From NCBI GenBank assembly GCA_005882955.1, contig VBBB01000067.1, positions 1,745 through 31,223 on the forward strand: a DNA stretch of 29,479 nt, written 5' to 3'. The notes beneath the pieces were generated by a model. That model was not told the origin of the DNA, ran no database searches, and was given only the letters and a program-made list of their open reading frames with translations. Numbering within the stretch: position 1 is the stretch's first letter; the number at the start of each line of letters is the position of its first letter. A program made the translations under genes and the position numbers. Below are positions 25,314-29,479 of this stretch, piece by piece. This DNA is from Candidatus Bathyarchaeota archaeon. GTDB taxonomy: Archaea > Thermoproteota > Bathyarchaeia > 40CM-2-53-6.

Positions 25314-25413
25314 GCGCCCGCCTGTGAAAGACAATGACTAACCCTAAGCAGGACAGAATCCCGTGTTTCCTCGTCACAAGGCTAAATTCCGACGGCTAGA
25401 AGCCCGGAAGGTT

Positions 25414-25920
25414 ATGAGACCCTCGAAGCCGGTCAGCGATTCGAAATCCACCTTATCATCTCAGATGCTGCCGAGCGATGCGAACCCGATGGGGTTCGGC
25501 CACGGAGGAACGATACTCAAACTCGTCGATGTCGCAGCAGGAGTGACAGCCCTACGCCACACCCGACAGACGGTGGTCACCGCTAGCATGGACCGGATGG
25601 ACTTTTACAACCCAGTCTATGTTGGAAACCTCCTCACGCTCAAAGCCTCACTAAACTACGCGGGCCATACGTCAATGGAAGTAGGAGTTAGAATTGAAGC
25701 AGAGGACCTCAAGACCGGCAAAGTTACTCACACGGGATCCTCATACCTCACTTATGTTGCTATGGACGAAAACGGAAAGCCGACTGAGATCCCCGACGTC
25801 GTTCCAGAATCCCCTGATGAGAAACGTCGATGGAAGGATGCGAAGAGAAGGCGAGAAGAACGCTTGAGAATGGTCGCGTTGGTCAAGAAGGAAAGGGCCG
25901 CAGAGAACTCTTTCAAATGA
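25414..25920 (+). CDS. Acyl-CoA thioesterase, HotDog fold (YciA-like)
   Basis: MLPSDANPMGFGHGGTILKLVD, VVTAS.D.MDF..PV.VG, GHTSMEVGVRIEAED and TYVAMDE. ATG at 25414 preferred. Confidence 0.92.
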   Translation: MRPSKPVSDSKSTLSSQMLPSDANPMGFGHGGTILKLVDVAAGVTALRHTRQTVVTASMDRMDFYNPVYVGNLLTLKASLNYAGHTSMEVGVRIEAEDLKTGKVTHTGSSYLTYVAMDENGKPTEIPDVVPESPDEKRRWKDAKRRREERLRMVALVKKERAAENSFK

Positions 25921-26795
25921 GGGTCGCAGTCATCGGCTTCGGAATGATGGGACGCCAGATAGCACAAGTCTTCGCACAACACGGCCACGAAGTTTCCGTG
26001 ACCGACGAGAATCCGGCCGCGGTCGAATTAGGACTTGACGAGGTCGCCCACGGACCCTACGGCATAGAATCGGCGGTTGCCAAGGCGAAGATAACCCGAG
26101 AAGAAGGGACCAAGGCTCTCCAACAAATCCGACCAGCTGCCGACTTGAAGGAGGCCTGCAACAGTGCAGACCTTGTCATAGAAGCCGTATACGAACACCT
26201 ACTGCTCAAACAGGAAGTATTCGGAAAGCTAGAATCAGCTGCTCCCCAGAGTGCCCTGCTCGCCTCGAACACGTCCACGCTCACAGTCACCAAGATCGGA
26301 TCAAAACTCTCCAAAAAAAACAGGCTGTTGGGCATGCACTTCTTCAACCCCGCACAAATCACCAAACTCGTCGAGATCGTCAAAACAGACCAGACATCAG
26401 TGGAAGCAATTCAGAAAGCAGGCATGATCGTCGAAACGATCGGAAAGACGCCCATCATGGCCCGGGATGAGCCCGGTTTTATCGCTAACCGATTGGGACT
26501 CACGCTTTTCATGGAGGCGTCCAAGCTTCTCGAGGAAGATACCGCCAAGATTCGCGACATCGACCTAGCAATGAAATTGGGGTACAATCACCCAATGGGA
26601 CCCTTCGAACTCGTGGATTTTGTAGGGCTTGACACAAGACTCCGCAACCTCGAAGCGCTCTTTCAAGCTACTGGTGATGAAAAGTGGATTCCGCCAAAAG
26701 CCCTCAGAGAGATGGTAAATCAAGGATACTTGGGAGATCCCTCACGAAGAAAAGGCAGCAAAGGAGGCTACCGCGAATTCTTCACGACTCGTTGA
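25917..26795 (+). CDS. 3-hydroxyacyl-CoA dehydrogenase (Hbd/PaaH-like)
   Basis: VAVIGFGMMGRQIA, DLVIEAVYE, LASNTS, GMHFFNP, PGFIANR, LGYNHPMGP and DFVGLD. ATGA overlap with the thioesterase stop. Confidence 0.94.
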   Translation: MRVAVIGFGMMGRQIAQVFAQHGHEVSVTDENPAAVELGLDEVAHGPYGIESAVAKAKITREEGTKALQQIRPAADLKEACNSADLVIEAVYEHLLLKQEVFGKLESAAPQSALLASNTSTLTVTKIGSKLSKKNRLLGMHFFNPAQITKLVEIVKTDQTSVEAIQKAGMIVETIGKTPIMARDEPGFIANRLGLTLFMEASKLLEEDTAKIRDIDLAMKLGYNHPMGPFELVDFVGLDTRLRNLEALFQATGDEKWIPPKALREMVNQGYLGDPSRRKGSKGGYREFFTTR

Positions 26796-26845
26796 GAATT
26801 CCCAACGCTTTATACACGCGCTACGATCGGCAAAACTGATCCCTC

Positions 26846-27619
26846 TTGCCGTTCAGCCAGATAGTAGTCGAGACAGAACCGCCCATCGGTATCATTCGTC
26901 TAAACAGACCCAAAGTCCTCAACGCGTTAAACTTCGAACTCCTCAGAGAACTCGTGGAGGCTCTCGAAGCGTTCGACAAGGATGATCGAATAAGAGCAAC
27001 CGTTCTGACCGGGAATGATGATGCCTTCTCAGCCGGGGCGGACATCAAAGAACTATCCGAAGCAACCCCAGTCGACCTCATCCAGCGCAACCAGTTCGCA
27101 CTCTGGGACAGACTGAAGAAAACAGCCAAACCAATCGTAGGAGCCATCAGTGGACACGCCCTAGGTGGAGGATGTGAGCTGGCAATGAACTGTGACATTA
27201 TCATCGCCTCAGAAACGGCAAAGTTCGGACAGCCTGAGATCAATATAGGAATAATGCCCGGAGCCGGCGGGACCCAACGCTTGACAAGAACTATCGGAAA
27301 ATTCCGCGCCATGGAAATGATCCTAACCGGGCAACCCATTACTGCTCGGGAAGCAGAGAAACATGGACTCGTCAACAGGATCGTCCCGATAGAGGCCTAC
27401 TTTGAGGAAGCGAAGAAACTAGCTATGCAGATTGCACAGAAAGCACCTGTCGCAACGCGATTAGCCAAAGAAGCAGTCTTGAAAGCCTTCGACACCTCGC
27501 TACAGGAGGGCCTCCAATTTGAGAGAAGAAACTTCTACCTTCTCTTCTCGACGCAGGACATGAAGGAAGGAATGAAAGCCTTCAGCGAGAAACGACCACC
27601 ACAGTTCAAAGGGCGATGA
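26846..27619 (+). CDS. Enoyl-CoA hydratase (PaaF-like crotonase)
   Basis: LNRPKVLNAL, AFSAGADI, GHALGGGCELA, FGQPEINIGIMPGAGGTQRL (both catalytic Glu present). Own TATA box TTTATA at 26809-14. Confidence 0.92.
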   Translation: MPFSQIVVETEPPIGIIRLNRPKVLNALNFELLRELVEALEAFDKDDRIRATVLTGNDDAFSAGADIKELSEATPVDLIQRNQFALWDRLKKTAKPIVGAISGHALGGGCELAMNCDIIIASETAKFGQPEINIGIMPGAGGTQRLTRTIGKFRAMEMILTGQPITAREAEKHGLVNRIVPIEAYFEEAKKLAMQIAQKAPVATRLAKEAVLKAFDTSLQEGLQFERRNFYLLFSTQDMKEGMKAFSEKRPPQFKGR

Positions 27620-27620
27620 G

Positions 27621-28415
27621 ATGGGCTACGAAACCATACTAGTCGAAAAGAAGGAACAGATAACTAGAATCACCCTGAACCGCCCTGCAGCCCTCAACTC
27701 CTTTGACGACAAGATGGGAGAAGAATTCTACAGGGCGCTAAAAGAGGCGGACAGGGACGAGGGCACTCGTTGTCTCATAATCACCGGGGCAGGTAGAGCC
27801 TTTTCAGCCGGCGAAGACGTCTCAGGTCTGAAAGAGAGGTACGGTGGTGACTCCCGTCCCTCCCTTGGAGATCACCTACGAAAAAAATACCATCCGATGA
27901 TTCTAAGGATCCGAAACATGGAGAAGCCAGTTATAGCACGAATCAACGGCATCGCCGCAGGCAGCGGCGCGAGCATTGCCCTCGCCTGCGATATCCGAAT
28001 AGCCTCCGAGGAGGCGGGCCTCAAGCAAGCCTTCATCGGGGTAGGCTTGGTACCCGATTCTGGAAGTAGCTATTTCCTGACCCGAACCCTTGGCCCGGGC
28101 AGGGCCCTTGAGCTAATCATGACCGGCAGAACAGTCGGAGCCAAGGAAGCTGAGAATCTAGGGCTAGTAAACCAGACAGTCCCAGGCACTGAACTAGACA
28201 ACGTCGTGAACAGCGTTGCAGAGAAGCTTGCGAATGGACCCACAAAGGCCCTCGGACTCTCAAAGAGAGTGGTGAACCAAGTTAGCCGGCTTGAACTACC
28301 CGACGCCCTTGAGTATGAAGCCCAGAACCAGGATATAGCGGGAAAAACCAAAGACCATCTAGAGGCAGTCAGAGCATTCCTTGAGAAGCGTCAGCCCAAG
28401 TTCTCAGGAACATGA
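27621..28415 (+). CDS. PaaG-like enoyl-CoA isomerase / ring-opening crotonase
   Basis: AFSAGED, PSLGDHLRKKYHPMI, NGIAAGSGASIALACD and GLVPDSG. The single catalytic Asp pattern matches PaaG rather than the two-Glu hydratases. Confidence 0.82.
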   Translation: MGYETILVEKKEQITRITLNRPAALNSFDDKMGEEFYRALKEADRDEGTRCLIITGAGRAFSAGEDVSGLKERYGGDSRPSLGDHLRKKYHPMILRIRNMEKPVIARINGIAAGSGASIALACDIRIASEEAGLKQAFIGVGLVPDSGSSYFLTRTLGPGRALELIMTGRTVGAKEAENLGLVNQTVPGTELDNVVNSVAEKLANGPTKALGLSKRVVNQVSRLELPDALEYEAQNQDIAGKTKDHLEAVRAFLEKRQPKFSGT

Positions 28416-28443
28416 GTCAACGAGAGAACCTCAAGATTTCACG

Positions 28444-28451
28444 TTTAAGTA
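28444..28451 (+). promoter_or_regulatory. TATA box TTTAAGTA for the di-iron protein gene
   Basis: Ends 33 nt upstream of the TTG at 28485. Confidence 0.5.
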
Positions 28452-28484
28452 ATATGTTGAGAAGATCACCAAGACGAGCATAAC

Positions 28485-29479
28485 TTGCCCAAGGCCCAGA
28501 AGGACAAGCCCAAAGCGGACCTGAACATTTTCCCCGGAAACTGGACCATCAAGAACGAGATGATGTTCCGCGCATTCGACCTGTCCTTCGCTCAAAACTG
28601 GAATCCTTCAACCCTTCCATGGGACGAACTCGACGGGAAGAACTTCGACCCTAAGGAGCGAATAGCTCAGGCCTACTGGATGTCAAAGCTCGCTCTCTTC
28701 GAGAAATCTGGCATTGGAGCCTTCGGTTTCGGCATAGTAAGAGCAGCAGAATTGAACTTGGAGGATCCAACGAAGAAGATGCTCGCATCAATAACCTATG
28801 ACGAATGCCGTCACGATGAAGTATGCCGCAGAGCCTGCAACAAACTCTGCCCCAACTGGCCTTACGGGTACAAGCCCCAATCAGATTTCGAACAGAAGGC
28901 ATTGAGGAACATACAAACCCTTTACGATGAGGGACGAAGGTACTGGAAGGGATTCGTGGGTGCTTGGGAGTACCTTTCTCCCGAGCTATTGTTTGCCGGC
29001 TTTTTCTTTGCAGAGATCGGAGCCGAGACAATATTCAACTCAATGCGCCAGACGAGCAAACTCGAAGTCTATCGACAATCGTTCCAGAACATAACCAGAG
29101 ACGAGACCCGGCACTTGGTAGCGACGATGGCGCTCTTGCGAGCGATGTCCCAAGAGTTTACGGAGGAACAGAAACTTACCGTTACTCGCCAGATGAAACA
29201 AGGCTTCATCTTTTTGTCTCCACTCCTCTACGAGCACAAGTCCGAATTCTGGCGGCTACCATCTGATTTTGACAAAGTCGACCATGAACTGGAGCAGATT
29301 GCGCGAGACTCGGGGTTAGGATGCTTGACGATGGAGGAGAAGGTAAAGTATTGGAGGCAGGCGATTGAGAAGAAGAGAGGCGAGATAGAAGAAATGGGCA
29401 TCAAGGTCCCCGCGATCCCTGAGATAGAAGTTGAAGGGATAGACGTACAAATCAGGAAAAACGAGACCATAGCAACCAG
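28485..29479 (+). CDS. Ferritin-like di-iron carboxylate protein (3' end outside window; not in ORF track)
   Basis: Open frame of 331+ codons, MPKAQKDKPKADLNIFPGNW... Ligand pattern E73 (FEKSG), E107/H110 (DECRH), E177 (AEIG), E207/H210 (DETRH). Confidence 0.88.
   Translation, partial: MPKAQKDKPKADLNIFPGNWTIKNEMMFRAFDLSFAQNWNPSTLPWDELDGKNFDPKERIAQAYWMSKLALFEKSGIGAFGFGIVRAAELNLEDPTKKMLASITYDECRHDEVCRRACNKLCPNWPYGYKPQSDFEQKALRNIQTLYDEGRRYWKGFVGAWEYLSPELLFAGFFFAEIGAETIFNSMRQTSKLEVYRQSFQNITRDETRHLVATMALLRAMSQEFTEEQKLTVTRQMKQGFIFLSPLLYEHKSEFWRLPSDFDKVDHELEQIARDSGLGCLTMEEKVKYWRQAIEKKRGEIEEMGIKVPAIPEIEVEGIDVQIRKNETIAT

Follow-up and report, generated by a model that had tools for sequence, protein, structure and literature searches.

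The 29,479-nucleotide stretch of Candidatus Bathyarchaeota DNA analysed here (hereafter the window; contig VBBB01000067.1, positions 1745–31223, numbered C12 in its assembly, G000) ends, together with its contig, within an open reading frame (ORF) for a di-iron protein, which lies downstream of genes resembling those of phenylacetate (Paa) catabolism. We propose, with a probability of about one half, that this ORF encodes an oxygenase from an unnamed family of di-metal enzymes that oxidise CoA esters in phenylacetate-type hybrid catabolism, ring epoxidation of phenylacetyl-CoA (or of an analogue) being the likeliest reaction. The broader statement that the archaeal protein performs an O2-dependent oxidation of a CoA thioester is probable. 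The proposal is built on the ligand set, the predicted fold, the family membership and the gene contexts, as observed in the window and in archaeal and bacterial relatives.

The di-iron ORF (28485..29477, + strand, TTG start, 331 aa) has no stop before the window's final base. It lacks just two codons (S-F) and the stop codon, as read from a 99%-identical relative ending in ATSF, encoded on a 206-kb contig (L015) of a grassland-soil "Bathyarchaeota" metagenome-assembled genome (MAG). The full-length protein has 333 aa and its homologs 328–334 aa, thus the window protein is essentially complete; with 158 homologs at E<=1e-3 (best E 1e-221), the ORF is not a chance one. Its truncation at the contig edge would account for the absence from the gene track mentioned in the preliminary description. 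The residues read from its sequence are E73, D106-E107-C108-R109-H110, C114, E177 and D206-E207-T208-R209-H210, so that the half-sites of a ferritin-like di-iron carboxylate protein (E73, E107xxH110, E177, E207xxH210) are all found, on a predicted helical bundle. The complete ligand set claimed by the preliminary description, made from the letters alone, was indeed confirmed and is near-invariant in 34 homologs, E73, D106, C108, H110, C114, C118, C122, E177, D206, E207, R209 and H210 being unchanged in all of them. Its remark on extra cysteines was borne out in part: C114 reaches >=95% conservation in archaeal and bacterial clades alike, at His+4 and in the register of Tyr122 of E. coli R2, while C108, C118 and C122 are confined to the archaeal clade.

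No Pfam family above threshold, and no NCBIfam match at all, was found for the di-iron protein. Below threshold, Pfam returned class I ribonucleotide reductase R2 (PF00268, 16.8 bits against a cut-off of 33.6) and rubrerythrin (17 bits, E 0.006), with no match to PF05138 (PaaA/PaaC) at E<=0.1; a sequence search of the PDB gave marginal rubrerythrin matches only (E 0.15). The AlphaFold2 model is an all-helical bundle (pLDDT 89.7), whose best structural matches are R2lox proteins (7qbp, 6qrz, 4hr0, 3ee4; Z 18.4–19.6, ~260 aligned residues), the top three scoring Z 19.6 (7qbp), 19.3 and 19.2 with a root-mean-square deviation of 3.1–3.4 Å over 248–262 residues. VlmB-like proteins (6d9f/8wvr) follow at Z 19.2 and class I R2 at Z ~18; lower scores were obtained with the archaeal PaaA-like SSO1313 (Z 15.8), PaaC (3pvr_B, Z 15.4), AurF (Z 14.6) and BoxB (Z 14.1), and PaaA itself was not among the structural matches listed. 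Identity in these alignments is 8–16% overall and 12–14% to R2lox. Foldseek searches of the AFDB clusters and Swiss-Prot retrieved only generic R2, desaturase and Rv0885 matches, with TM ~0.5. R2lox scores no more than 1.5 Z above R2 and VlmB, too small a gap to tell them apart by fold, and the model places the protein, by predicted fold, in the R2lox/AurF neighbourhood of the ferritin-like superfamily.

Three known families could be set aside. The protein is not an R2, because Cys114 occupies the position of the radical Tyr122 of E. coli R2, in addition to the sub-threshold Pfam score. Membership of PaaA/PaaC was rejected for lack of any PF05138 or NCBIfam match and of partner subunits, and BoxB for lack of an NCBIfam match, for its length (~470 aa) and for its low Z score. 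The preliminary description had not recognised the protein as PaaA, PaaC or BoxB, and rightly so; nor does it fall into any characterised family of unrelated function (desaturase, R2, ferritin), the outcome that would have spoken against a new oxygenase. Some of its relatives are named "diiron oxygenase" by NCBI.

The four co-oriented genes upstream were read in the preliminary description as a thioesterase, a dehydrogenase, a two-Glu crotonase and a PaaG-pattern crotonase, and Pfam, NCBIfam and motif alignment agree with it, the dehydrogenase matching Pfam 3HCDH_N and 3HCDH and each crotonase ECH_1. In the PaaF-like crotonase the GGGCE and QPE motifs align with those of PaaF, and the NCBIfam PaaF model scores 322 bits, under its cut-off of 371. 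The best NCBIfam match of the PaaG-like crotonase is PaaG (TIGR02280, 248 bits, under the cut-off of 345); the Asp of the GL(V/I)PD(S/C)G motif is present as in E. coli PaaG, and the Thermus and E. coli PaaG structures rank 2–6 among solved structures. The dehydrogenase is 37% identical to E. coli PaaH over the dehydrogenase part of the latter, and the thioesterase finds its best NCBIfam match in YciA, with PaaI weak.

Close relatives of the di-iron protein are encoded in 86 GTDB species genomes, and only 150 hits were obtained when 1.8 billion cluster representatives were searched exhaustively without a profile. The archaeal hosts are soil and peat Bathyarchaeia, Nitrososphaeria that do not look like ammonia-oxidising archaea, "Ca. 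Pelearchaeum" and "Ca. Caldarchaeum"; amoA (PF12942) was not matched in five Nitrososphaerales hosts, and neither was it in the control, so that this search is uninformative. Gene order was compared in 80 archaeal species loci, genes for CoA-ester metabolism (CoA genes) being sought within 10 kb. The soil Bathyarchaeia (~22 species loci, 78–99% identity) share the order 4HBT-HCDH-ECH_F-ECH_G-diiron-EthD-thiolase-DUF35, where 4HBT is the thioesterase (at the same position in ~17 of the 22 loci), HCDH the 3-hydroxyacyl-CoA dehydrogenase and ECH_F and ECH_G the PaaF-like and PaaG-like crotonases; an aldehyde dehydrogenase (ALDH) gene is convergent to the operon or ~8 kb away. Peat Bathyarchaeia (~11 loci) show thiolase-DUF35...SDR-diiron, convergent with ECH_G-(86 aa ORF)-ECH_F, the small ORF being not detectably EthD-like. 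Some Nitrososphaeria have thiolase-ECH_G-ECH_F-GNAT divergent from the di-iron gene, the crotonase pair accompanying it in two Nitrososphaeria arrangements, and on a metagenome contig (L013/L106) the same pair stands beside it with IorAB and a PaaK-like ligase. The recurrent crotonase linkage anticipated by the preliminary description was thus recovered in four differently arranged archaeal contexts: association with PaaF-like and PaaG-like genes has been kept through several rearrangements, yet it is not universal (see below).

As to side observations on these loci, a second Pfam-less ORF of 330 aa in L005 was ruled not to be a paralog of the di-iron gene. Contigs L017, L019 and L072, whose proteins are 53–97% identical to those of the archaeal locus, are assigned to MAGs with bacterial names ("Candidatus Dormiibacterota bacterium" or "bacterium"), probably through binning or labelling errors.

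The gene neighbourhoods of bacterial relatives connect the family with phenylacetate catabolism. A metagenome scan seeded with distant relatives yielded at least 413 homologs, and the bacterial family comprises at least 858 clusters at 90% identity, whose members are named "hypothetical", "ferritin-like", "rubrerythrin" or "diiron oxygenase" and whose cultured hosts include Rhodobium, Castellaniella, Denitromonas, Hydrogenophilus, Caenispirillum and Azospirillum. The window protein aligns over its full length with the product of L118:8457-9479 (35% identity, E 8e-71, 310 residues), sharing the ligands, the Cys at His+4 and the C-terminal PAIPE..G motif. The L118 contig reads paaK-paaJ-paaH-paaG-paaF <> paaZ-diiron-reductase, then paaX, and PaaK, PaaJ, PaaH, PaaG, PaaF, PaaZ and PaaX all exceed their NCBIfam equivalog cut-offs. 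The partner is an FNR-type 2Fe-2S reductase (Fer2/FAD_binding_6/NAD_binding_1) of the BenC/MmoC/PaaE kind, encoded directly downstream of the di-iron gene in 40 of 79 metagenome loci; within 10 kb, the same 79 loci contain PaaX (18), PaaI (17), PaaG (16), PaaK (15), PaaJ (11), PaaZ (11) and PaaH (8).

Further arrangements were found in other bacteria. On plasmid pVF1 of Vitreoscilla filiformis, whose family member is WP_089418347.1, the order is paaBCDE...pcaF...paaZ...[hypothetical di-iron][2Fe-2S protein]. Variovorax RA8 and VAI-C carry MaoC-ECH-DUF35-thiolase-(PaaN)-PaaK-like ligase-(CoA transferase)-diiron-reductase-ABC transporter, the PaaN of VAI-C scoring 625 bits against a cut-off of 579, with no paaABCD in the operon and an IOR-family gene nearby. 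In these two strains (L190:15890-19017, L188:14953-17017) the diiron-reductase pair is followed by the ABC transporter, a GlcD-like FAD oxidase, an Lrp regulator and a fused IOR-family oxidoreductase, which hints that the substrate originates from an aryl-2-oxo or aryl-hydroxy acid. Another bacterial clade (L123) shows diiron-PaaN-PaaI without PaaABCD.

The pair is found also where the canonical oxygenase is missing. Castellaniella defragrans has the order paaJ-K-I-H-G-PaaN <> diiron-reductase-paaX, and no PaaA or PaaC above cut-off was found in its whole genome (one 22.5-bit match in a 486-aa frame), the same search detecting both PaaA and PaaC in the Marinospirillum control genome. A Sedimenticola-labelled contig reads paaK-paaI-...-paaJ-paaH-paaG <> paaZ-diiron-reductase, then paaX and a transporter, with no paaABCD within its 27 kb. 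Aerobic growth on phenylacetate has been reported for Sedimenticola CUZ and Dechloromarinus NSS, which possess paaZ, F, G, H, J and K and lack paaABCD, only a "paaE" having been found, their "oxygenase-epoxidase yet to be identified" (Carlstrom et al. 2015, PMC4453571). The reductase described here fits that "paaE", and the unannotated gene preceding it fits the missing oxygenase, as a candidate read from the Sedimenticola-labelled contig. In the same Sedimenticola-type cluster, COX3 and COX4_pro genes lie between paaI and paaJ (L191:2232-3146), so that heme-copper oxidase subunits neighbour the pathway in a second, independent case. In a class-wide sample of 400 genomes around Castellaniella, only Castellaniella itself had the family; the sample is too sparse for a phyletic comparison with PaaA.

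From these contexts we infer O2 activation, a CoA-ester substrate, ring epoxidation and a route for the electrons, as follows. The reduced 2-His/4-carboxylate centre would bind O2 and insert one O atom into an aryl-acyl-CoA, most likely turning the ring of phenylacetyl-CoA, or of a closely similar ester, into its 1,2-epoxide. The product would be opened and shortened by the PaaG-like isomerase, the PaaF-like hydratase, the PaaH-like dehydrogenase, the thiolase-DUF35 pair and the aldehyde dehydrogenase, dead-end CoA esters being possibly rescued by the hotdog thioesterase. In bacteria the electrons would come from the adjacent FNR-type 2Fe-2S reductase. In archaea the CoA ester would probably be made without PaaK, for example from arylpyruvates via a fused IOR-family oxidoreductase; an IOR-alpha-like fused protein is encoded in 18 of the 21 genomes surveyed in the window's genus (five of them >=90% complete) and could supply arylacetyl-CoA without a ligase. 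More tentatively, and at somewhat less than even odds, the family might add to PaaABCE and BoxAB a third class of enzymes that epoxidise aryl-CoA rings, recruited independently from an R2lox/AurF-like scaffold and comprising the missing epoxidase of CUZ/NSS-type bacteria and a reductase-less, EthD-paired version in aerobic TACK archaea (soil Bathyarchaeia, non-ammonia-oxidising Nitrososphaeria and Caldarchaeales). These archaea would then possess an O2-dependent aromatic ring cleavage so far undescribed in their lineages.

Several observations weigh against assigning the phenylacetate-type function to the archaeal protein. A maximum-likelihood tree of 71 representatives groups the archaeal sequences into a single long-branched clade, apart from the bacterial clades. 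The metal ligands, Cys114, many aromatic residues and the PAIPE..G motif are conserved in both groups, and fixed differences surround the ligand helices (e.g., F174>L, F175>M, A176>G, K74>A), extending to the first carboxylate, E in archaea and D in bacteria; the archaeal substrate may therefore differ. E107 is replaced by Q in 3 of the 34 homologs. These form a subclade (DQCRH; P0024, P0025 and P0032, loci L011 and L012), and in L011 the di-iron gene is still directly 3' of the PaaG-like crotonase. Searches of the 21 genus genomes found neither PaaA/C nor a PaaK above cut-off, and nothing homologous to the bacterial reductase; PaaA/C was not found in G000 either. In G000, the only genome searched for PaaZ and PaaN, E. 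coli PaaZ gives partial matches of 23–25%, and tblastn detected no PaaB, PaaC or PaaE there. The archaeal ALDH is of the generic BADH/StyD-like and not of the PaaN type. Beyond position 29479, where the preliminary description had hoped for a reductase, an aryl-CoA ligase, PaaZ or a thiolase, the L015 contig does provide the thiolase, followed by DUF35, but both stand behind an EthD-family gene (TIGR02118, 62 bits) in the place where a reductase would be expected. A complex prediction of the L015 di-iron protein with this EthD protein returned a score of 0.00, which is no verdict and has no bearing on binding.

Gene order adds to these points. About 43 of the 80 archaeal loci (Nitrososphaerales, Caldarchaeales) have no CoA genes within 10 kb; in 32 loci of this type an MFS transporter gene converges on the di-iron gene, and in 21–27 Nitrososphaerales species loci the di-iron gene lies 75 bp 3' of, and co-oriented with, COX2-COX1/3-COX4-cupredoxin. 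COX1 and COX3 are fused in these cox clusters (loci L049–L091, e.g. L056:2920-4925, L090:6504-10957). Five genomes of the type without adjacent CoA genes carry elsewhere a GNAT-HCDH-ECH_F-ECH_G-thiolase-ALDH module, with a 3-oxoadipyl-CoA-thiolase-like thiolase, which resembles a gene set for lower Paa steps or for dicarboxylate beta-oxidation; the same module (L103, L104, L105; G001–G003) occurs in Nitrososphaeria without PaaA/C or PaaK. On the bacterial side, seven metagenome loci, as well as the Vitreoscilla and Marinospirillum records, have canonical paaABCDE next to the diiron-reductase pair. The pair therefore does not just stand in for the canonical enzyme: the two systems may act at different steps or on different substrates, or differ in their affinity for oxygen or in the metal they need.

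In a first alternative the protein oxidises non-aromatic acyl-CoAs (fatty, dicarboxylic or alicyclic) as a desaturase, hydroxylase or C-C-cleaving enzyme feeding ordinary beta-oxidation, the bacterial paa linkage reflecting the specificity of another subfamily. We consider it unlikely. It would account for archaeal neighbours of generic beta-oxidation types, all under the Paa equivalog cut-offs, for a thiolase of the SCP-x/DUF35 type, for pocket residues unlike those of the bacterial clade and for a genus with no PaaK or PaaA/C and, in G000, no PaaZ/PaaN-type match. R2lox, the nearest fold, binds a fatty acid. BioE, a ferritin-like di-iron oxygenase shown experimentally to cleave long-chain acyl-CoA/ACP, is ADO-like (~20% identical to cADO) and belongs to a biotin context (PMC12704756), and it offers a precedent. 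However, the crotonase pair is specifically PaaF-like and PaaG-like, aromatic/paa markers (PaaK, PaaN, PaaI, PaaX or IOR) are found in every bacterial clade examined, and for ordinary beta-oxidation G000 already encodes three acyl-CoA dehydrogenases.

The cox synteny, the COX3 and COX4 genes within the Sedimenticola paa cluster, the name "rubrerythrin" given to many members by JGI and a tight co-occurrence with COX1 could instead be taken to indicate a protein with no CoA-ester role, linked to respiration or oxygen stress (an oxidase accessory or maturation factor, a protein reducing peroxide or acting on quinol, or a rubrerythrin-like protein). This is quite improbable: the synteny does not extend beyond one group of relatives and may reflect common descent more than function, Pfam matches rubrerythrin weakly and no rubredoxin domain is present, and a role in oxidase assembly would leave the NAD(P)H reductase and the paa neighbours of the bacterial members unexplained.

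Fainter still is the case for an AurF/VlmB-type N-oxygenase acting on an amine, with a GNAT acyltransferase and MFS/EamA exporters, in a hydroxamate/azoxy-type pathway. A GNAT gene is indeed divergent from or adjacent to the di-iron gene in L003, L005, L047, L048 and L096, many loci have transporter genes next to it, no structure matches the fold better than the VlmB homolog 6d9f/8wvr, which shares first place, and the distant relatives P0121 and P0137 score 32–33 bits with Pfam AurF (PF11583), just above its gathering threshold of 29.6. The window protein, nevertheless, has no PF11583 match (22.7 bits for the bacterial L118 protein), the Bathyarchaeia operon has no GNAT gene, and the bacterial paa context favours CoA esters. 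Moreover, the residue four positions before E207 is Ile203, where AurF has its third His ligand, four residues before the second ExxH Glu; an AurF-type third-His site was rejected on this comparison. An acyl-CoA 2,3-desaturase replacing acyl-CoA dehydrogenase and, prompted by the cox synteny, a heme A or quinone biosynthetic hydroxylase were also considered, and no specific support was found for either.

The preliminary description found an O2-dependent enzyme remarkable in Bathyarchaeia, usually regarded as anaerobes. This surprise does not hold for the present host. G000 carries two genes for heme-copper oxidase subunit I (COX1), and the window's soil genus has been described as (micro)aerobic (PMC10321748), so that such an enzyme is not anomalous. 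Of 251 sampled Bathyarchaeia genomes, the 20 with the di-iron gene all belong to the same family as the window, and COX1 is present in 19 of these 20 as against 13 of the 231 others, a link to oxygen that also counts in favour of the proposed oxygenase.

The features of the window are collected in Table 1. The thioesterase ORF is open from a GTG at 25363, the ATG at 25414 being its likely start, and the dehydrogenase ORF is open from 25830, with a likely start at MRVAVIG. No tRNA gene was found within the window.

Table 1. Coordinates (window numbering) of the di-iron gene, its conserved motifs and the co-oriented genes upstream.
Feature	Position	Strand	Basis
Di-iron (or Mn/Fe) carboxylate protein, unnamed family	28485..29479	+	Two codons short of stop at contig end; ligand set, homologs, AlphaFold2 model
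E73 codon, first carboxylate ligand	28701..28703	+	Asp in bacterial clade; invariant in 34 archaeal homologs
First DExRH motif (D106-H110) and Cys-rich helix (C108, C114, C118, C122)	28800..28850	+	Conservation across homologs
E177 codon, third carboxylate ligand (FFFAEIGA)	29013..29015	+	Invariant across whole family
Second DExRH motif (D206-E207-T-R209-H210)	29100..29114	+	Invariant across whole family
C-terminal PAIPE..G motif (P309-G318)	29409..29438	+	P309, E313, G318 conserved in archaeal and bacterial clades
Hotdog (4HBT) acyl-CoA thioesterase	25414..25920	+	Pfam PF03061, E 2.7e-17
3-Hydroxyacyl-CoA dehydrogenase, short form, PaaH-like	25917..26795	+	PF02737, E 2.5e-57; PF00725, E 1.8e-25
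PaaF-like enoyl-CoA hydratase, crotonase with both catalytic Glu	26846..27619	+	PF00378, E 5e-82; 45% identity to E. coli PaaF, full length
PaaG-like isomerase, crotonase without catalytic Glu pair	27621..28415	+	GLVPDSG Asp; 39% identity to E. coli PaaG

G000, the MAG to which the window belongs, is 77.6% complete in 168 contigs, and the EthD and thiolase genes expected 3' of the window were not found in it. The ALDH gene that is convergent to the cluster in L015 was located at the end of contig C32 of G000 (C32:23351-24638), as three tblastn pieces of 100%, 93% and 100% identity, and may contain frameshifts or assembly errors. Taken together, the position of this gene and the missing EthD and thiolase genes indicate that the cluster was split by an assembly gap. 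Metatranscriptome contigs of 150–386 nt, from four soil libraries of one study, match window positions 28484–29479 and 27587–27823 with 95–99% identity and cover parts of the di-iron and PaaG-like genes, the uncovered parts of the cluster carrying no meaning; they are a weak hint that close relatives of these two genes are expressed.

The phenylacetate pathway is present in roughly a sixth of sequenced bacteria and, to our knowledge, only two systems, PaaABCE and BoxAB, epoxidise CoA-bound aromatic rings. The linkage of the family with bacterial paa genes, its reductase partner, the genomes that carry it without PaaABCD and its cox synteny are added here. If the phenylacetate-type reading is true, a single-subunit enzyme of another fold lineage would represent a non-orthologous replacement within this pathway, it would explain the puzzle, dating from 2015, of Sedimenticola and Dechloromarinus growing aerobically on phenylacetate without paaABCD, and several hundred "hypothetical" or "rubrerythrin" proteins would become nameable. 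Abundant soil Bathyarchaeia and Nitrososphaeria would gain an O2-dependent route for aromatic amino-acid or lignin-derived acids, with consequences for our view of how they became adapted to life in oxic soils. Castellaniella, Variovorax and Vitreoscilla are examples of cultured and tractable bacteria that lend themselves to a direct test.

Among known systems, R2lox is similar in size and has the same six-ligand site, and it itself binds an acyl-chain ligand; we know of no R2lox genes in paa contexts. AurF, CmlI and VlmB have a similar fold, but the context of the window is CoA-ester catabolism and not arylamine biosynthesis. BioE is alike as a ferritin-like di-iron oxygenase acting on CoA/ACP thioesters. 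In BoxAB a di-iron enzyme (BoxB, ~473 aa) epoxidises an aryl-CoA ring with electrons from a reductase of its own, and the product is handled by a member of the crotonase family; BoxA and BoxC genes were not seen near the di-iron gene of the window. PaaABC(D)E uses NAD(P)H via an FNR/2Fe-2S reductase (PaaE), and a reductase of that kind accompanies the bacterial relatives and not the archaeal form; the present family differs from it in having a single oxygenase gene without PaaB, PaaC and PaaD, DExRH motifs and a conserved Cys at His+4. PaaABC(D)E is likewise a ferritin-like di-iron oxygenase (catalytic PaaA, PF05138), it works in a similar neighbourhood of PaaG, PaaF, PaaH, thiolase and thioesterase, and the bacterial relatives of the di-iron protein share its paa clusters.

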